Positions 3,534 through 16,099 of a DNA stretch of 16,099 nucleotides are shown here, one piece after another; position 1 is the first letter of the stretch, and each line of letters opens with the position of its first letter. Origin of the DNA: an uncultured Bacilli bacterium. GTDB taxonomy: Bacteria; Bacillota_I; Bacilli_A; RF39; UBA660. The notes under the pieces were generated by a model that worked only from the letters and a program-made list of their open reading frames with translations, was not told where the DNA came from and made no database searches. The position numbers and the translations under genes are program-made. The stretch lies in contig CANQFE010000026.1 in NCBI GenBank assembly GCA_947598285.1, forward strand, positions 1 to 16,099, read 5' to 3'.

Positions 3534-4820
3534 ATGTCAAAAATAAAAAATATATATGCAAGAGAAGTCTTAGATTCAAGAGGAAATCCAACCGTTGAAG
3601 TAGAAGTAACTACTGAAAGTGGAATAATTGCTCGGGCGATTGTTCCAAGCGGAGCTTCAACAGGTGAAAAAGAAGCCTTAGAACTTCGCGATAATGACCC
3701 CAAAAGATACTTAGGAAAAGGCGTTTTAAAAGCAGTATCTCATGTGAATCATGAAATCAAAAATGCCGTTCTTGGTTATGAAGTAACAAATCAAACTGAA
3801 ATTGATGAACGATTAATCTCTCTTGATCATACAGAATCTAAAACGAACTTAGGAGCTAATGCCATTTTAGGAGTCAGTTTAGCTGTTTCTCATGCTGCCG
3901 CCAAAGAAAATCATCTTCCTTATTACCAATATTTACAACCTCAAGATCATTATTTTTTACCAGTACCAATGATGAATGTTTTAAATGGTGGAAGTCATGC
4001 CGATAACTCGATTGATTTTCAAGAATATATGATTGTTCCAGTGGGTGCTCAAACATTCCGGGAAGCTGTTCGCATGGGAAGTGAAGTATTTCATCACTTA
4101 AAAAATATTTTAAAAGAACAAAATCAAGTCACTTCAGTAGGAGATGAAGGAGGATTTGCACCCAATCTAAAAGATAATGAAGAACCTCTAGATAATATTA
4201 TAAAAGCAATTCAAAGAGCAGGTTATGTTCCAGGAAAAGATATTTTTTTAGCTTTGGATGTCGCGGCAAGTGAATTTTATAACCCCGAAACCAAATGTTA
4301 TGAATTAAAGAAAAGTAATGGTGGAGTAAAAACTACAGAAGAAATGATTTCATGGTATGAAAAATTAATTTCTAAATATCCAATTTTTTCTATTGAAGAT
4401 GGATTAGGAGAAAATGATTGGGATGGATGGCAAGAACTAACCAAACGCCTTGGAAAAAAAATTCAATTAGTTGGCGATGATTTATTTGTAACGAATGCAT
4501 CTTTACTTCAAAAAGGAATTGAAAAGAATGTCGCGAATTCCATATTAATTAAAGCCAATCAAATTGGCTCATTAAGTGAAACTTTAAAGACTGTTTCACT
4601 AGCCAAAGAACATCATTATTCCTGTATTATTTCTCATCGAAGTGGCGAAACAGAAGACACCACTATTGCCCATCTAGCAGTAGCCTTAAATACGTTACAA
4701 ATTAAAACGGGTTCGATGTCAAGAACTGAAAGAATTTGCAAATATAATGAACTCATGCGAATTGAAGAATTATTAGGCGAAAAAGGAACGTATGCTGGTT
4801 CTAGTATCTTAAAAAATTAA
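3534..4820 (+). CDS. eno: Enolase (phosphopyruvate hydratase)
   Basis: 428 aa. Hallmark N-terminus [19 protein letters not shown], plus motifs SHRSGETED and [13 protein letters not shown]. Full-length architecture. Confidence 0.97.
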
Positions 4821-9301: not shown

Positions 9302-9341
9302 TAAAAAATGATTTTCGACATAAAATATGGTAGGTGATTTT

Positions 9342-9704
9342 ATGAACGAGAAAAAAGAAGAATTTAAATCATTTGCCAAAATGCATCCTGAATTAATTAA
9401 TTATGTCAAAAATGGGGAAATGTCATGGCAAAAATTTTATGAAATTTATGATATTTATGGACCAAATGATTCTGCTTGGAACTCGTATTTTAAAACAACA
9501 GAAAATACGGTAAATAATGACGCAATGGGAGCAATCACCAATAAAATCCGTAATATCAATATGAATTCAATTCAAGAACACATTAAAACTGCTCAAAAAG
9601 CTTTAAATTTAGTCAGTGAACTAACAGGCAAAGCAGAGTCTTCGATTGGAAATGTCACACCACCAAAAGTTCCAAGACCAATTAATCAATTTTTCGAGGA
9701 TTAG
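9342..9704 (+). CDS. ylbD: YlbD-like small protein (YlbD_coat family)
   Basis: The EEFKSFAKMHPELINYVKNGEMSWQKFYEIYDIYGPNDSAWNSY pattern and the PRPINQFFED C-terminus match my recollection of B. subtilis YlbD. I prefer the ATG at 9342 (TAGGTGA RBS 5 nt upstream) to the track start at 9327. Confidence 0.55.
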   Translation: MNEKKEEFKSFAKMHPELINYVKNGEMSWQKFYEIYDIYGPNDSAWNSYFKTTENTVNNDAMGAITNKIRNINMNSIQEHIKTAQKALNLVSELTGKAESSIGNVTPPKVPRPINQFFED

Positions 9705-9705
9705 T

Positions 9706-9927
9706 ATGGAATTAGAATTACAAAAGAAAATGATTGATACTCCTAAAATGTATCAACACTTAAAAGAAAACTCTTATTGGATTAAATATTTAAATCGGGA
9801 TGCCAATTCTTATAAAGAATTTGTAGAACAAATGAAAGAATTATATCATGAAAGAACAACAGATAAAATTAGTGATGCCATTGATAACCTTGATTTAGTA
9901 AGCAATGTCTTAATGTCTTTGAAATAG
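9706..9927 (+). CDS. ylbE: YlbE-like small protein
   Basis: 73 aa. YQHLKENSYWIKYLNRDANSYKEFVEQMKELYHERTTDKI resembles the YlbE family (..REQPYWYR.L.R.P ... Y.KT). The ATG at 9706 has a GAGGA RBS (9696-9700) and follows the ylbD-like stop (9702-9704) by 1 nt. The track start at 9646 would overlap the previous gene by 59 nt. Confidence 0.55.
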   Translation: MELELQKKMIDTPKMYQHLKENSYWIKYLNRDANSYKEFVEQMKELYHERTTDKISDAIDNLDLVSNVLMSLK

Positions 9928-10460: not shown

Positions 10461-10536
10461 ATTAAGCAATATAATAATTAATACTCTTTGGAGAGTGTGA
10501 AAAATTCTAAAAATAAATTTCAAATATAACATGATT

Positions 10537-12415
10537 GATAAAAAATATAAGGGAGGTTTGTATGAATTATAATGTCGATTTTGATATAGAATTAACTTTA
10601 CTTTCAGCAGAAGAAATTTTTGGGAAAAATAAATTAGATGTTCTAAGAAAATATGGAACTTCATCTGCAATTACTGATTTAGCTATTTTAACTGGGGGTG
10701 ATTGCTGTAATATGACTCTTGGTCCTAGTTTAAAAGACCGTACGGGACCGTATTATACAAAATCTCCTGGTATTAATGGAAAGGTACTGGGCATTTATGG
10801 AGATGGTGAAAGAGCTAGCTTTCATCCATGTATTCGCAGTATTGCTATTCGTCCCGTTATAAAAAACTCTACAATCTTTGATTCTCTCTATCCAAACAGA
10901 ATAAAGGATTATAATGGATGTGAAGTAGTGGAGTTCGGAGAGTATCCTCAATATACTCCAATCTTCGATGTACAAGAATTATTAGAAAAAGAATATCAAG
11001 TAATAGGTTTACGTAAAACAGGGAGAAAATATACTTTTGATTCTACAGCTTCTGATAATTATTCCCAATCTTTTCAACCTGTTACTTATAATGAATATGA
11101 ACATAAAGGGAAAAAATATATTAGAGTAGAAGCAAGATCCCGTTTTAGCTATTTTCAGTTATCAAATGAGCAAAAATATAAAAATGGAGATAATGTATGG
11201 GTAGAAGTCTCTCCAGTTGTATGGTTGATAGATGAGGAAACAAAAAGTTTGGTATGTAAAAGAGGAATTTTGTCTGGAATCCTATTTCATACAGGTTCTA
11301 AAAAATACAATGGTGATTTTAAAACAACAGAAATGAAAAAATATTTAGATAAACATATGTCAAAAGAATTATTTCAAAACATAACATTGGAAGAATATCA
11401 AAAACCAGAAGAACAAGAAATAAAAGCTAAAAAAAGAATAAACCCTTATGGATTAAAGTTTAACAATGTAAGTGAAGAAGATATAATAAAAGGATCGATT
11501 GAAAGTGGAGTTCCTGTATTTTTACATGGACCATCAAGTGAAGGAAAAAGTGCTAGAGTAAAACAAATTGATCCCGATTGTACAATTATTTATTTAAGAA
11601 ATGCAACACCTGATAGTTTGAATGGCAAAAGTGTTTATCATTCAGAAACAGGAGAAATGATAGATGTAAAACCAACATGGTTAAAAAAATTAGAAACGAA
11701 ATGTGAAAATGAACCAGAGAAATTACATATCGTATTCTTTGATGAACTTACAAATGCATTACCAAGTATCCAAGGAATTGCTTTTAATATAATATTAGAT
11801 AAAGAAGTGAATGGAATATGGAAGTTACCAGAGAATGCCAGAATCGTTGCAGCAGGAAATGAAATGAAAGATTCCTTATCAGCCAATCAACTATCTGAAC
11901 CATTATTTAATCGATTTGCCCATGTTTATATAAAAACAACTACAGAAAGTTGGTTACAATGGGCAAGTGAACATCATATTCATCCAGCAATTTATTCATA
12001 TATAGCATATAAAAAGGGAAAAACATTAAGAAGTAAATATGATGGCGAAAAACCAAATGCTGATCCAAGGAAATGGGAAATGGCCTCAAAGATGCTTTAT
12101 GCTACAGGAAAACCAGAGATGTTAAGAGCTTTAGTAGGAGAAGAAATTACGAAAGATTTTGTAGAGTTTTGTAAGCAAGAAGTAATCACATTAAAAGATG
12201 TGCTACAAGATAACTATAGCAAAGAAGATATTCAAAGACTCAATACAGCATCGAAATATGCAACAGCAGTAACATTATCTCAAGTAGATGAAGAGAATAT
12301 GGCAAAGGTAAGGCAATTCATTACAAATTTAGGAGCAGAATTTGTAGCAATATTTGATTCATTATGGAGTCAAGAAAATGAATCAAGATTAGAACAAGTT
12401 TTAGAACAAAGACTT
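10537..12415 (+). repeat. Direct duplication, copy A (RBS plus almost the whole ATPase gene); perfect core at 11422-12328
   Basis: Aligned by eye to 14160-16045 (offset 3623-3624 at the 5' end, 3630 after a 6-nt indel). Every 60-nt row from 11422 to 12328 is identical to 15052-15958. Confidence 0.95.
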
Positions 12416-12436
12416 GTATTAGGAGGTAAACGCTAA
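10562..12436 (+). CDS. AAA+ ATPase of the MoxR/AAA_5 type with a ~285-aa N-terminal extension (DUF6273-like modules); paralogue A
   Basis: ATG at 10562 with a GGGAGG RBS; the track start at 10535 is a TTG. Walker A is GPSSEGKS (11528-11551). Walker B is HIVFFDELTNA (D394 E395 at 11741-11746). There is a sensor-1-like ARIVAAGN and an Arg-finger-like EPLFNRFAHVYI, followed by a helical C-terminal region. The N-terminus carries AITDLAILTGG ... PYYTKSP ... IRPVIK and EFGEYPQ ... VVWLIDEE ... TTEMKKYLDKHMSKELF. Confidence 0.8.
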   Translation: MNYNVDFDIELTLLSAEEIFGKNKLDVLRKYGTSSAITDLAILTGGDCCNMTLGPSLKDRTGPYYTKSPGINGKVLGIYGDGERASFHPCIRSIAIRPVIKNSTIFDSLYPNRIKDYNGCEVVEFGEYPQYTPIFDVQELLEKEYQVIGLRKTGRKYTFDSTASDNYSQSFQPVTYNEYEHKGKKYIRVEARSRFSYFQLSNEQKYKNGDNVWVEVSPVVWLIDEETKSLVCKRGILSGILFHTGSKKYNGDFKTTEMKKYLDKHMSKELFQNITLEEYQKPEEQEIKAKKRINPYGLKFNNVSEEDIIKGSIESGVPVFLHGPSSEGKSARVKQIDPDCTIIYLRNATPDSLNGKSVYHSETGEMIDVKPTWLKKLETKCENEPEKLHIVFFDELTNALPSIQGIAFNIILDKEVNGIWKLPENARIVAAGNEMKDSLSANQLSEPLFNRFAHVYIKTTTESWLQWASEHHIHPAIYSYIAYKKGKTLRSKYDGEKPNADPRKWEMASKMLYATGKPEMLRALVGEEITKDFVEFCKQEVITLKDVLQDNYSKEDIQRLNTASKYATAVTLSQVDEENMAKVRQFITNLGAEFVAIFDSLWSQENESRLEQVLEQRLVLGGKR

Positions 12437-12831
12437 TGAATCAAGATAAAATAAACCTTTTAAAAAATTATATTTCGGCTAACGTTGCACCTATCCTAAT
12501 AGATTTTGTTTCTGATATTCATCTTTCAAATTCAATTTCGATACCAGCAAATTGTGATGAATCAGATTTTAATGGGCATTTTCTTGGAAAAGAGTTTTTA
12601 CCACCTAAATGGTATTATGAATTAATTCATAAAAAAGATACCAAAGTAATTGTTATTAATAATATTGATAGTATTTCAAAAGAAGAACAATTAAAATTTA
12701 AAGAGTTACTAAAGTATAAGCAAGTCGCAACATTTAAAATACCAGAAAAAACAAGAATTATTTTAACAGCTAAAAAGGTGAATAAAAATACCATCAATGA
12801 AGAAATATATTCTTTAGTCGCGCATATTTGA
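12436..12831 (+). CDS. Small protein (131 aa) resembling a degenerate AAA+ half-domain with no Walker A and Walker B DE replaced by NN
   Basis: TAATG overlap with the upstream stop (12434-12436 / 12436-12438), with AGGAGG at 12421-12426. The C-terminal 75 aa (PPKWYYELIHKKDTKVIVINNIDSISKEEQLKFKELLKYKQVATFKIPEKTRIILTAKK..INEEIYSLVAHI) align by eye with the upstream ATPase segment PTWLKKLE..KLHIVFFDELTNALPSIQGIAFNIILDKEVNGIWKLPENARIVAAGN..LSEPLFNRFAHVYI. Confidence 0.6.
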   Translation: MNQDKINLLKNYISANVAPILIDFVSDIHLSNSISIPANCDESDFNGHFLGKEFLPPKWYYELIHKKDTKVIVINNIDSISKEEQLKFKELLKYKQVATFKIPEKTRIILTAKKVNKNTINEEIYSLVAHI

Positions 12832-12841
12832 AGGTAAGATT

Positions 12842-14161
12842 ATGAATTGTGATGTAGAATTGATAAAAAGAAAAATGCTTGTAAAATATCCTTTTTTTGG
12901 TAGTGTTATAGCTAATGTTGATTATAAAGAAAATATGGAGATTGAAAGAGCATGTACGGATGGAATGACAATATATTTTAATCCAAATTCTTTAAAGCGA
13001 ATAAAAATGGAAGAACAAATTTTTATTTTTGCACATGAAGTGTGTCATATTGCTTTTGATCATATTAATAGAAGTGAAGGCAAAGATTTCAAAATATGGG
13101 ATATTGCCACGGATGGTGTTATAAACCAATTTTTAAAACGGGATGGTTTAAAAATTCCTAATGGTATGATAGATATACCCGAAGCAATCAATTATGATGC
13201 TGAAGAATTGTATGAAAAATTACTAAAAAAGAACCAACAAAACAAAGAACAAAATAGCCAAGGTGATTTGCAAAAACAACGAGACTCATCAGGGCAAAAA
13301 AATTCTTCAGATGAAGAAAACTCTTTTGAAAACCAAAATAATGATGTAAATCATGATACTCATAGTATGTGGAAAGATGCATTAAAAAGAAAAAAAGAAA
13401 ATGAAGAAATGAAAAAACAACAAGAAAATAAATTACAACAAGAAATCGATAAAATTAGTGACATGGGTGAAAAAGAAGCTTTTCATAAGAATTTAGAAGA
13501 AAAAAAACAGGAATTAGAAACATTAAAACAAGTTTTATCTAAAGAATTAATGAAAGCTGGAACATCTACGAATGAAGAGCAATTTACCATAGATGATATA
13601 GGAAAATCTAAACCGATGATAGATTGGAGATATGTTCTAAGAGAAGCGATTCAATATGATGTTGATTGGTCTTATAAAAATGCTTATATTGAGGATGGTG
13701 TAATAAGTGCAAATTTAGAAGAACAACCTTTGCCTGAAACAGAAATTTTATTAGATACTAGTGGTTCTATAGATGAATCTCTTCTTAAAAACTTTTTAAG
13801 AGAATGTAAAAATATTTTACAATATTCCAAAATAAAAGTTGGTTGTTTTGATGACAAATTTTATGGATTCCATGAAATTAGAAACGAAAAAGATATAGAA
13901 AATATGAAGTTTGAAGGTAAAGGAGGAACAGATTTTACTGTTGCGGTAAAAGCATTTACAAGAAGAGTAGAAAACAAAATCATTTTTACGGATGGATATG
14001 CAAGTATGCCAGATATTTCATTAAATGCTATTTGGATCGTTTTTGGAACAGAAGAAATTAAACCTAAAGGTGGAAAAGTAATTCAAATAAATGAAGAACA
14101 ATTAAATAGATTATATTCTCTTGAACAAGATATGTCTTATAAAAGAAAAAAAGAATTATGA
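12842..14161 (+). CDS. Putative metallopeptidase (HExxH) plus von Willebrand A-like protein, DUF2201_N/DUF2201 architecture
   Basis: N-terminus YPFFGSVIANV ... CTDGMTIYFNPN ... FIFAHEVCHIAFDH (HEVCH at 13034-13048) ... WDIATDGVINQFL ... DAEELYEKL. C-terminus has MIDAS-like LLDTSGSID (DTSGS at 13754-13768), GKGGTDFT and IIFTDGYASMP...AIWIVF. A ~120-aa Q/N/K/E-rich linker sits between them. GAAGGTAAG RBS; 10-nt gap after the upstream gene. Confidence 0.8.
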   Translation: MNCDVELIKRKMLVKYPFFGSVIANVDYKENMEIERACTDGMTIYFNPNSLKRIKMEEQIFIFAHEVCHIAFDHINRSEGKDFKIWDIATDGVINQFLKRDGLKIPNGMIDIPEAINYDAEELYEKLLKKNQQNKEQNSQGDLQKQRDSSGQKNSSDEENSFENQNNDVNHDTHSMWKDALKRKKENEEMKKQQENKLQQEIDKISDMGEKEAFHKNLEEKKQELETLKQVLSKELMKAGTSTNEEQFTIDDIGKSKPMIDWRYVLREAIQYDVDWSYKNAYIEDGVISANLEEQPLPETEILLDTSGSIDESLLKNFLRECKNILQYSKIKVGCFDDKFYGFHEIRNEKDIENMKFEGKGGTDFTVAVKAFTRRVENKIIFTDGYASMPDISLNAIWIVFGTEEIKPKGGKVIQINEEQLNRLYSLEQDMSYKRKKEL

Positions 14162-16045
14162 TAGAAAAATATAAGGGTGGTTTGTATGAATTTTAATATC
14201 GATTTTGATATAGAATTAACTTTACTTTCAGAAGAAGAAATTTTTGGGAAAAATCAATTAGATGTTCTAAGAAAATATGGAACTCAATCTGCGATCACTG
14301 ATTTAGCTATTTTGACAGGTGGGATTTGCAGCAAAAAGTGTTATGTTCCTGATGATACTAGTTTAAAAGGTCGTACAGTACCGTATTATACAAAATCTTC
14401 TTTTTATGAGAACGATCTATGTATAGATTTAGCTGGCAATATGATGTTTAGACATCGTTGTAGCCGATCTGAAGGCATTCGTCCCATTATAAAAAACTCT
14501 ACAATCTTTGATTCTCTCTATCCAAACAGAATAAAGGGTTATAATGGATGTGAAGTAGTGGAGTTCGGAGAATATCCTCAATATGCTCCAATTTCCGATG
14601 TACAAGAATTATTAGAAAAAAAATATCAAGTAATAGATTTACGTAAAACAGGGAAAAAATATACTTTTGATTCTACAGCTTACAGTAATTTTTCCCAATC
14701 TTTTCGACCTGTTACTTATGAGGAATATGAATATAATGAAAAAAAATATATTAGAGTAGAAGCAAGATCCTGTTGTCAAGATTTTCAGTTATCAAATTAT
14801 GAAGAATATAAAAATGGAGATAATGTATGGGTAGAAGTCTCTCCAGTTGTATGGTTGATAGATGAGGAAACAAAAAGTTTAGTATGTAAAAGAGGACTTT
14901 TGTCTGGAATAAGATTTCATACAGATTCTAAAAAATACAATGGTGATTTTAATACAACAGAACTGAAAGAATATTTAGATAAACATATGTCAAAAGAATT
15001 ATTTCAAAATATAACATTGGAAGAATATCAAAAACTGGAAGAACAAGAAAAAAAAGCTAAAAAAAGAATAAACCCTTATGGATTAAAGTTTAACAATGTA
15101 AGTGAAGAAGATATAATAAAAGGATCGATTGAAAGTGGAGTTCCTGTATTTTTACATGGACCATCAAGTGAAGGAAAAAGTGCTAGAGTAAAACAAATTG
15201 ATCCCGATTGTACAATTATTTATTTAAGAAATGCAACACCTGATAGTTTGAATGGCAAAAGTGTTTATCATTCAGAAACAGGAGAAATGATAGATGTAAA
15301 ACCAACATGGTTAAAAAAATTAGAAACGAAATGTGAAAATGAACCAGAGAAATTACATATCGTATTCTTTGATGAACTTACAAATGCATTACCAAGTATC
15401 CAAGGAATTGCTTTTAATATAATATTAGATAAAGAAGTGAATGGAATATGGAAGTTACCAGAGAATGCCAGAATCGTTGCAGCAGGAAATGAAATGAAAG
15501 ATTCCTTATCAGCCAATCAACTATCTGAACCATTATTTAATCGATTTGCCCATGTTTATATAAAAACAACTACAGAAAGTTGGTTACAATGGGCAAGTGA
15601 ACATCATATTCATCCAGCAATTTATTCATATATAGCATATAAAAAGGGAAAAACATTAAGAAGTAAATATGATGGCGAAAAACCAAATGCTGATCCAAGG
15701 AAATGGGAAATGGCCTCAAAGATGCTTTATGCTACAGGAAAACCAGAGATGTTAAGAGCTTTAGTAGGAGAAGAAATTACGAAAGATTTTGTAGAGTTTT
15801 GTAAGCAAGAAGTAATCACATTAAAAGATGTGCTACAAGATAACTATAGCAAAGAAGATATTCAAAGACTCAATACAGCATCGAAATATGCAACAGCAGT
15901 AACATTATCTCAAGTAGATGAAGAGAATATGGCAAAGGTAAGGCAATTCATTACAAATCTAGGAGCAGAATTTGTCGCAATATTTGATTCATTATGGAAT
16001 CAAGAAAATGAATCAAGGTTAGAACAAGTTTTAGAACAAAGACTT
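14160..16045 (+). repeat. Direct duplication, copy B; perfect core at 15052-15958
   Basis: See copy A. The duplication starts at the stop codon of the vWA gene and includes the RBS (AAGGGTGG versus AAGGGAGG). Confidence 0.95.
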
Positions 16046-16099
16046 ACAAATTCAGTAGAAAAAAGAATATTACAAAAAAACGTTGAATTAAAAATTTAA
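14186..16099 (+). CDS. AAA+ ATPase of the MoxR/AAA_5 type with a diverged N-terminal extension; paralogue B
   Basis: ATG at 14186 (the track start at 14177 is a GTG) with an AAGGGTGG RBS. The Walker A, Walker B and sensor motifs are the same as in paralogue A, within the identical tract. The N-terminus differs (GGICSKKCYVPDDTSLKGRTVPYYTKSSFYENDLCIDLAGNMMFRHRCSRSEGIRPIIK) and the C-terminal tail is distinct (TNSVEKRILQKNVELKI). The TAA stop is the last 3 bases of the window. Confidence 0.8.
   Translation: MNFNIDFDIELTLLSEEEIFGKNQLDVLRKYGTQSAITDLAILTGGICSKKCYVPDDTSLKGRTVPYYTKSSFYENDLCIDLAGNMMFRHRCSRSEGIRPIIKNSTIFDSLYPNRIKGYNGCEVVEFGEYPQYAPISDVQELLEKKYQVIDLRKTGKKYTFDSTAYSNFSQSFRPVTYEEYEYNEKKYIRVEARSCCQDFQLSNYEEYKNGDNVWVEVSPVVWLIDEETKSLVCKRGLLSGIRFHTDSKKYNGDFNTTELKEYLDKHMSKELFQNITLEEYQKLEEQEKKAKKRINPYGLKFNNVSEEDIIKGSIESGVPVFLHGPSSEGKSARVKQIDPDCTIIYLRNATPDSLNGKSVYHSETGEMIDVKPTWLKKLETKCENEPEKLHIVFFDELTNALPSIQGIAFNIILDKEVNGIWKLPENARIVAAGNEMKDSLSANQLSEPLFNRFAHVYIKTTTESWLQWASEHHIHPAIYSYIAYKKGKTLRSKYDGEKPNADPRKWEMASKMLYATGKPEMLRALVGEEITKDFVEFCKQEVITLKDVLQDNYSKEDIQRLNTASKYATAVTLSQVDEENMAKVRQFITNLGAEFVAIFDSLWNQENESRLEQVLEQRLTNSVEKRILQKNVELKI

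Follow-up and report, generated by a model that had tools for sequence, protein, structure and literature searches.

A tandem pair of MoxR-like ATPase genes of probable recombinational history, in which the exact repeat of the motor module is probably inflated by metagenome assembly

The 16,099-nucleotide contig analyzed here (called the window throughout; CANQFE010000026.1 of assembly GCA_947598285.1, from an uncultured Bacilli bacterium of the RF39 lineage) closes with an operon in which two paralogous genes for MoxR-like AAA+ ATPases flank a small gene and a gene for a DUF2201 protein. The two ATPase genes share a direct repeat of 907 bp without a mismatch, and this repeat coincides with the ATPase motor. 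We favor, with moderate confidence, the conclusion that the genes are a real tandem pair of paralogues with a recombinational history, and that the identity of their motors has been inflated by the assembler. The phenomenon is of a known kind; among MoxR-vWA pairs, the gene system represents a variant not described before. The genes and repeated segments are as follows.

10562 to 12436, forward strand: ATPase 1 gene, 624 aa (from the open reading frame list and the gene call in a contig of a sibling assembly), whose product has a MoxR-like AAA+ module joined by a disordered linker to an N-terminal domain of about 270 aa
12436 to 12831, forward strand: small gene, 131 aa, a conserved member of the operon
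12842 to 14161, forward strand: DUF2201 gene, 439 aa, encoding a zincin-like metallopeptidase domain and a vWA-like domain
14186 to 16099, forward strand: ATPase 2 gene, 637 aa, complete, its stop codon forming the final three bases of the window
10536 to 12415, forward strand: duplicated unit, copy 1 (from BLASTN of a sibling contig and self-comparison)
14159 to 16045, forward strand: duplicated unit, copy 2 (same evidence)
11422 to 12328, forward strand: 907-bp exact repeat, copy 1 (from direct comparison at an offset of 3630)
15052 to 15958, forward strand: 907-bp exact repeat, copy 2 (same evidence)

The two copies of the duplicated unit are about 93% identical. Copy 1 begins at the ribosome-binding site, 26 nt 5′ of the ATG, and ends 21 nt short of the ATPase 1 stop codon; the upstream motif AAAAATATAAGGG(A/T)GGTTTGTATGAAT is common to both copies. 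Direct comparison confirmed the 907-bp identity that had been described in an initial annotation of the window, and the borders given there proved exact: a mismatch at position 11421 (codon 287, ATA Ile versus AAA Lys) marks the 5′ side, and on the 3′ side precisely four mismatches (12329, 12346, 12369 and 12388) precede complete divergence past 12415/16045. The repeat encodes residues 288 to 589 of ATPase 1, which comprise the AAA+ core and the lid/helical C-terminal part with AAA+ motifs intact, which bears out the earlier view of it as the motor module of two tandem paralogues. When the 48 differences within the ungapped 1563 bp were permuted in 20,000 rounds, the longest run never exceeded 381 bp, so the tract of 907 bp is not a product of chance.

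Evidence on the origin of this perfection comes from sibling assemblies of the same strain, which consist of metaSPAdes-style contigs with k-mer coverages of 4.3 to 4.6. The contigs recovered are L001 (16,227 bp), L081 (16,201 bp), L080 (12,573 bp) and L002 (2,774 bp), the last two from the same sample, together with L078 and the Logan contig L079, which was built at k = 31. Outside the duplicated ATPase bodies, each sibling differs from the window by 0 to 3 single-nucleotide polymorphisms (SNPs) over the 11 to 13 kb compared. Window positions 3562, 3577, 10726 and 14437 are the only such differences, and these may be low-coverage errors or within-sample polymorphism. The near-equal coverage suggests that the siblings derive from one DNA sample or library. 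Within the repeat, the assemblies differ at 12 sites.

11567 to 12110, forward strand: 12 inter-assembly sites, at 11567, 11603, 11605, 11645, 11683, 11696, 11698, 11905, 11971, 12046, 12061 and 12110, each mirrored at +3630

These sites span 544 bp and produce 5 amino-acid changes. In the sibling assemblies that contain two copies of the gene (L001 and L081), both copies carry the same allele at all 12 sites. Thus, the sites differ between assemblies and never between the copies of one assembly, and the perfect identity described earlier depends on the assembly. With the two alleles denoted X and Y, the four bubbles expected at k = 55 read XXXX in the window and in L081, YYYY in L001, and YYXX in L080, which has a single copy. 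The gap that contains the one allele switch in L080 measures 66 bp, more than k.

The borders of the repeat also vary between assemblies. The 5′ edge of identity lies at 11422 in the window and at 11175 in L001 and L081, where copy 2 carries the copy-1 alleles over 14881 to 15051, and where the identity from 11175 therefore extends over 1154 bp. The alternative edge is the exact left end of a short segment found in the mismatch lists.

11175 to 11250, forward strand (also 14805 to 14880): 76-bp stretch identical in both copies

No other anchor of 55 bp or more is shared on the left side of the repeat. In L002, the branch leading from copy 2 is a dead end at 15047, 4 nt ahead of the last distinguishing site, which is what tip-clipping back to the anchor at 11175 would need. 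At the other side, L002 and L078 both begin at 12274, a point that lies exactly 55 nt inward of the 3′ end of the repeat; L079 (k = 31) begins at 12299, exactly 30 nt inward. One sample was assembled as the first N-terminal region, the repeat and the second tail (L080), with the intervening 2774-bp loop (L002) as a separate contig whose coverage is 4.64 compared to 4.56 for the main contig. The initial annotation had proposed that the repeat is a substrate for deletion of the genes between the copies. The loop-less arrangement was seen only as a path choice of the assembler, with the loop present at the same coverage in the same sample. The annotated placement of the 5′ edge in the linker holds in that codon 287 falls within residues 275 to 300, which are predicted to be disordered with a predicted local distance difference test score (pLDDT) below 50, but the edge itself depends on the assembly. 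The warning about mis-assembly in the initial annotation was apt.

The simplest reading of the contigs is that the repeat acts as one collapsed graph edge that is crossed twice by the contig path. In metaSPAdes at k = 55 and approximately 4.6× coverage, the bubbles would be merged into a single edge, and the two copies in a contig would then be identical by construction. The assembler probably overstated both the 907-bp perfection and the sharp edge in the linker, and the motor copies most likely differ in reality at 12 or more sites, with an identity of at most about 98.7%. When the 12 X/Y sites are counted as differences between the copies, the longest run shrinks to 218 bp (P = 0.007). Doubled depth was sought in the coverages given in contig names (4.62, 4.55, 4.56 and 4.64), where the expected effect of 5 to 14% lies within sampling noise. 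A scan of JGI metagenomes with a 50-mer from the repeat gave no match, and a 76-aa query across one of the bubbles (bubble A) retrieved only other species and no same-strain fragments from Logan contigs. Look-ups by exact protein sequence gave no record for either ATPase of the window or for protein P0006. This case resembles a collapsed short-read de Bruijn repeat in being identical within an assembly and different between assemblies, in its breaks at k, and in the loop that was once left unthreaded. Unlike a plain collapsed repeat, the underlying duplication is real, and the motor copies still share about 98.7% identity or more.

Several observations weigh against our conclusion. A coherent haplotype over the four bubbles is seen in three of the four assemblies (XXXX, XXXX and YYYY), and random, independent popping of bubbles would be expected to give such coherence in only about one assembly in 8. 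The pattern would also result if the samples contained sub-strains with X or Y fixed in both copies by very recent conversions. The presence of both alleles in one sample is deduced from contigs and not from reads, and the single-library origin of the ENA assemblies from near-equal coverage alone. In addition, the nearest species is only 72% identical, so phylogenetic discordance is not demonstrable for the lineage of the window itself.

These points are also relevant to an alternative in which the exact identity, 907 to 1154 bp long, is real. It would then reflect very recent and repeated gene conversion, with X and Y representing sub-strain differences and with tracts that end at different points. 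The coherent haplotypes agree with this explanation, as do long exact tracts in the same module elsewhere (976 bp in L062; 1754 to 1842 bp in L023 and L066) and a signature of concerted evolution across the family. However, it needs at least two to three independent conversions in opposite directions among lineages that differ by 0 to 3 SNPs over 11 to 13 kb, whereas the mirrored alleles, the edges at k-length anchors and the breaks at k are all expected from graph collapse alone. Furthermore, the exact tracts in other species all come from short-read data, and the relative with a complete chromosome has no comparable tract (see below). We therefore regard real identity as possible, although doubtful.

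The recombinational history that we favor for the pair is recorded in the synonymous sites. Divergence between the paralogues at synonymous (dS) and non-synonymous (dN) sites was estimated by the Nei-Gojobori method for successive segments.

Residues 1 to 33: dS 0, dN 0.05
Residues 34 to 97 (cassette): dS 0.71, dN 0.44
Residues 98 to 205: dS 0.07, dN 0.11
Residues 206 to 287: dS 0.105, dN 0.044
Residues 288 to 589 (repeat): dS 0, dN 0
Residues 590 to 618 (tail): dS 0.20, dN 0.014
10661 to 10852, forward strand: hypervariable N-domain cassette, residues 34 to 97 of ATPase 1 (64 codons)
14285 to 14482: counterpart of the hypervariable cassette in copy 2

For residues 98 to 287 pooled, dS is 0.085. 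The tenfold jump in dS is thus limited to a cassette of 64 codons between near-identical flanks, and this requires recombination: either conversion spared only the cassette, or the cassette is itself a replacement. Judged by its synonymous sites, the cassette is very old or foreign, and the rest of the gene is young or homogenized, the motor most of all. The cassette is also the least conserved stretch in an alignment of 40 sequences. In the first 33 codons (10562 to 10660 versus 14186 to 14284), there are 4 non-synonymous changes and no synonymous ones. Up to 11250/14880, all assemblies give concordant N-terminal sequences for each of the two copies. Treating the 12 X/Y sites as differences between copies raises dS in the motor to approximately 0.04 and makes the linker edge meaningless, so the robust boundaries in this genome are those at residues 33/34 and 97/98. 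The old-looking synonymous divergence that had been ascribed to the 5′ parts of the genes is therefore found in residues 34 to 97, but not across the whole 5′ part. The earlier rejection of a uniform single duplication is borne out by the succession of dS values along the gene (0, then 0.71, 0.085 and 0).

It might be reasonable to propose instead a simple and fairly recent tandem duplication without conversion, in which selection on the N-domain is relaxed or diversifying while selection on the motor is purifying. When the X/Y sites are counted, synonymous differences in the motor (7 of 181) and in residues 98 to 287 (9 of 110) show no significant difference (p = 0.18). Likewise, a dN/dS ratio of approximately 1.5 in residues 98 to 205 hints, like the changes in the first 33 codons, at diversifying selection on the N-domain, although the counts are small, and the pair in the closest species (L003) is fairly uniformly similar at 94.5% identity. 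Yet differences in non-synonymous rate are insufficient to explain a cassette dS of 0.71 between flanks with dS of 0 and 0.085. In addition, the same gene order recurs in L003 and L051 with paralogues that are closer within than between species, and relatives show discordance at the level of domains. Simple duplication is accordingly very unlikely in our assessment.

A different concern is that the tandem pair could be an assembly chimera, with one real ATPase gene and a second copy contributed by a co-occurring strain. The low coverage (approximately 4.6×) and the single-copy contig L080 are in line with this idea, as is the fact that all contigs end no more than 30 bp past ATPase 2. The junctions between the second N-terminal region and the vWA gene and between the first tail and the small gene nevertheless recur in five independent contigs (window, L001, L081, L002 and L078/L079), and on this basis a single-copy chimera was rejected. 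The loop and main contigs also have equal coverage in the same sample (4.64 versus 4.56), L003 and L051 have the same architecture, and the family is rich in multi-copy arrays. Such a chimera is extremely improbable.

Homologues provide a wider view of the recombination that we propose for the window pair. A protein search scored more than 2,500 homologues of the operon family, mostly from metagenome assemblies, and a genome scan retained 75 related loci, mostly in metagenome-assembled genomes (MAGs) of gut-derived Bacilli and Clostridia. A core operon of the ATPase gene, the small gene and the DUF2201 gene is conserved in about 75 loci, except that the small gene is missing from the Clostridia branch (L057 to L077). 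Identity to the window across these relatives is 27 to 59% in the N-domain and 62 to 85% in the motor. Two to six tandem ATPase copies occur in various orders in at least 13 loci, and the order found in the window (ATPase, small gene, vWA gene, ATPase) is present in L003 and L051. Motors are 91 to 100% identical in amino-acid sequence within a genome, more than in any comparison between genomes (72 to 89%). In contrast, N-domain identity within the genome does not exceed the best value between genomes in L017, L041, L062 and L032. Discordance between motor and N-domain segments was found in L038, L041, L017 and L062, and fits with a single change-point place the switch at residues 280 to 304 in L062, L038, L056 and L041. 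In L062, an N-domain with 53 to 73% nucleotide identity is followed by 976 bp of exact identity, a pattern like that of the window. Over their first 100 nt, the paralogues of the window, L062 and L041 are 93 to 95% identical, and identity then falls sharply; with the conserved motor on the other side, the variable part is bracketed by conserved sequence at both ends.

Given that the other relatives with exact tracts are short-read assemblies, the complete-chromosome MAG CP091726 (L038) is the key control. Its longest exact run between copies is only 113 bp. Between copies 1 and 2, the motors share 89.8% identity, compared to 82% or less with any other species, and the N-domains of these two copies cannot be aligned with each other. 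The N-domain of copy 2 is 82 to 83% identical to those of other species versus 79.8% to that of copy 3, the copy to which the single-copy genes are positional orthologues (90% and 95% identity). From these comparisons, the modular discordance in CP091726 is real, with the motor homogenized or the N-domain replaced at the domain boundary. The comparison with homologues thus bears out the expectation of motors homogenized within genomes and of N-domains as old as, or older than, the splits between species. The interpretation in the initial annotation, gene conversion of the motor or swapping of N-terminal cassettes, is therefore partly supported: recombination, and motor homogenization at the level of the family, are upheld, whereas the perfect tract in the window is probably a product of the assembler.

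Two of the arrays have additional features. In L017 (1 to 12946), there are six ATPase copies and two sets of small and DUF2201 genes; the copies are 90 to 94% identical and share different exact tracts of 130 to 367 bp. In L023 (8539 to 17956), four copies are 99.5 to 100% identical, the last three with a period of 1967 bp. Both loci are on contigs of short-read MAGs, for which mis-assembly is possible.

The proteins encoded by the operon combine conserved and variable modules. The motor carries Walker A (GPSSEGKS, residue 323), Walker B (IVFFDE, 390), sensor 1 (AAGN, 430) and the arginine finger (NRF, 450), all four of which are invariant in 40 aligned homologues. Pfam AAA_5 scores only 17.2 to 18.5 bits, below its gathering score of 22, and residues 304 to 605 match phrog_1297 with an E value of 2.5e-50. 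A sequence search of the PDB with the ATPase gave no match. When the AlphaFold model was compared by Foldseek, NorQ chains were found with E values of 2e-6 to 5e-5 and a probability of 1.0, at a target-normalized TM-score of only 0.35 to 0.38. MCM subunits score as well as NorQ (E approximately 2e-6), and the motor model has pLDDT values of 32 to 91 per 10-residue block.

The N-terminal 270 residues are modeled with confidence (pLDDT 88.8; predicted TM-score 0.88), and no structural match in the PDB or BFVD reached an E value of 0.001. Two phage proteins annotated as "DUF6273 domain-containing" are among the top five BFVD rows (E 0.04 to 0.075; TM-score 0.25 or less). The Pfam profile for DUF6273 (PF19789) has no match to either N-domain of the window, even at E values up to 10. 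It exceeds its cut-off of 23.5 bits in two homologues, P0218 (25.4 bits) and P0129 (27.3 bits), covering only the C-terminal part of the profile (positions 77 to 169 of 172, approximately). In some homologues, then, a stretch that includes the equivalent of the cassette (residues 23 to 97, approximately) matches the C-terminal part of DUF6273, a domain that published structure modeling describes as C-type-lectin-like. Homologues P0008, P0129 to P0133, P0201, P0208 and P0224 are 886 to 936 aa long, with approximately 260 additional aa at the N terminus, and the DUF6273 match in P0129 lies at residues 265 to 361. These longer proteins may carry two tandem N-domains.

In the DUF2201 protein, the zincin-like domain is matched by PF13203 (E 7e-33; 114.7 bits versus a cut-off of 23.2) and carries an HExxH motif, HEVCH, at residue 65 (nt 13034 to 13048). 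The vWA-like domain is matched by PF09967 (E 1.6e-14; 54.5 bits versus 26.4) and has the metal ion-dependent adhesion site (MIDAS) DTSGS at residue 305 (nt 13754 to 13768). The region around HExxH weakly matches the minigluzincin MJ1213, and the whole protein aligns end to end with phrog_1314 (E 7e-64). That family is labeled "HNH endonuclease", which looks wrong for a protein whose sequence features are HExxH and vWA. The middle of the protein (residues 130 to 170, approximately) varies greatly in length among relatives, and the L003 protein has 611 aa. The 131-aa protein of the small gene has no Pfam, PADLOC or NCBIfam match and no Walker A motif. In one pairwise comparison, its residues 100 to 131 (FKIPEKTRIILTAKK...) show a weak resemblance to the sensor-1 part of the ATPase (WKLPENARIVAAGN...), with an E value of 0.003, and by this similarity it may be a degenerate AAA+ fragment. 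More generally, NCBIfam and PADLOC gave no match for any gene tested.

In the NorQ-NorD, CbbQ-CbbO and RavA-ViaA systems, a MoxR hexamer engages a vWA partner and remodels a target. The operon resembles these systems in that an AAA+ gene adjoins a vWA gene, with ATPase motifs and MIDAS intact. Apart from MCM, the structures that match the motor best are NorQ chains taken from NorQD complexes. Unlike the ATPases of these pairs, that of the window scores below the AAA_5 family cut-off and carries a variable N-domain of approximately 270 aa without a structural relative in the libraries searched. Its vWA protein differs from NorD, CbbO and ViaA in having a zincin-like peptidase domain (DUF2201_N), and the operon includes an extra small gene. 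Also, no target enzyme such as nitric oxide reductase or Rubisco is encoded near the operon, unlike in NorQ-NorD and CbbQ-CbbO.

Like the "ternary" vWA-MoxR conflict systems (Kaur et al. 2020, PMC7159879), the operon combines a peptidase domain with a MoxR ATPase and a vWA protein. Its candidate sensor, putatively lectin-like and diversifying rapidly, is in turn reminiscent of the C-type-lectin sensors of such systems that are diversified by diversity-generating retroelements (DGRs) (bioRxiv 10.1101/2023.09.22.558884). As in these systems, the N-terminal regions in the window are duplicated and modular. Searches with Pfam, PADLOC and NCBIfam, which do not include the VMAP profiles of Kaur et al., revealed no VMAP component or effector-associated domains in the window. 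In contrast to the ternary systems, the candidate sensor is fused to the ATPase rather than to the vWA protein, and the hosts are gut Bacilli with reduced genomes in which the operon can be located among housekeeping genes. The diversity of the family comes from arrays of paralogues and not from hypermutation as in DGR-diversified sensors. A DGR mechanism was rejected, as the window has neither a near-repeat of the template/variable type nor a reverse transcriptase gene.

Two further comparisons are informative. Like the phage pair phrog_1297 and phrog_1314, the operon encodes both components, with matches to the motor and to the whole DUF2201 protein. A distant homologue of the motor is encoded in 715 phage records at 24 to 32% identity. 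Among the best 15 of these 715 matches, alignment starts at query residue 218 or later, so that, unlike the ATPase of the window, these phage matches leave the N-domain proper uncovered. Cassette systems such as hsdS, pilE/pilS and vls likewise have conserved 5′ and 3′ sequence on either side of a variable segment, and the mosaic of exact tracts among the six L017 copies is similar to what such systems produce. However, no silent cassettes, invertase, recombinase or programmed switching were seen, and all ATPase copies are full length with their own ribosome-binding sites.

Based on this domain content, we infer that the two ATPases would be cytoplasmic proteins, each with a variable ligand-binding-like N-domain, a disordered linker and a MoxR-like AAA+ motor, and that they flank the genes for their possible partners, the 131-aa protein and the DUF2201 metallopeptidase-vWA protein. 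The N-domain may be a cytoplasmic ligand-binding module, as no signal peptide is apparent in the sequence. The different N-domains could serve as alternative sensors for one shared motor with a single vWA-peptidase partner, and paralogues that differ in the N-domain might assemble into mixed hexamers. Gene conversion and selection for compatibility could together keep the motors alike while the N-domains diversify. Such an arrangement would explain why motors are uniform within a genome as N-domains diverge. Against a sensor-motor-effector function, which we infer, stand the lack of PADLOC and NCBIfam matches and the housekeeping context of the operon in one relative. The output of the operon could be defense, as in the vWA-MoxR conflict systems (PMC7159879), or protein maturation.

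Diversifying N-domains on a genome-uniform motor, in up to six copies, are what would be expected of a recognition module that serves a shared machine. If confirmed, this arrangement would provide a testable handle on what DUF2201-type systems sense. We also speculate that the arrays of full-length paralogues are a recombinational repertoire of DUF6273-related, lectin-like sensors, which a conserved 5′ leader and the conserved motor would bracket, and which would be exchanged or homogenized by homologous recombination in the service of one motor and one effector. This more specific proposal is unlikely on present evidence. If true, several ligand specificities would be coupled to one MoxR-like motor and one vWA-metallopeptidase effector, and a conflict-type vWA-MoxR system in gut Bacilli with reduced genomes would diversify its sensors without a DGR. 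A more practical implication is that graph collapse can create long "perfect" repeats in low-coverage metagenome contigs, which sibling assemblies expose without the need for reads. The edges of conversion tracts, their recency and the potential for deletion are unsafe to infer from such contigs.

The C-terminal tails of the two ATPases differ, that of ATPase 2 being TNSVEKRILQKNVELKI. The ATPase 1 stop codon and the start of the small gene overlap (TAATG), and the ATPase 1 tail LGGKR (window 12415 to 12440), coded by TTAGGAGGTAAACGC, includes the GGAGG that serves the small gene as Shine-Dalgarno sequence. Most of the species listed have GG[KR][KR]-like tails on copies that adjoin a small gene, whereas copies without a small gene 3′ of them mostly have other, Lys-rich tails. 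Because the GG[KR][KR] tail encodes this GGAGG, it is constrained by position and not by ancestry, and the tails were rejected as proof of an ancestral duplication. The ATPase 2 tails of the window and L003 are only loosely alike. All sibling contigs recovered for that end (L001, L080 and L081) stop no more than 30 bp after the ATPase 2 stop codon (window 16099), with the tail TTCTCGTAAGAAGAACAAATCGATAATAAG (L001 13259 to 13288). This common end suggests another repeat, perhaps a third copy of the gene, or a coverage gap just downstream.

The remainder of the window, which has a G+C content of approximately 30%, contains housekeeping genes for an RsmB/F-type methyltransferase and enolase, followed by parE, parC, ylbD and ylbE. 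ATPase 1, the 131-aa gene, the 439-aa DUF2201 gene and ATPase 2 lie 3′ of these in that order. The sporulation-associated homologues of YlbD (coat) and YlbE are encoded at 9327 to 9927, directly 3′ of parC. At the opposite end, an open reading frame at 1 to 1230 encodes 409 aa from an ATG at position 1; it has 433 aa in a sibling contig, so its true start is upstream. The product has a weak match to a PKD domain and an Asn/Ser-rich C-terminal part, and is probably a surface protein.

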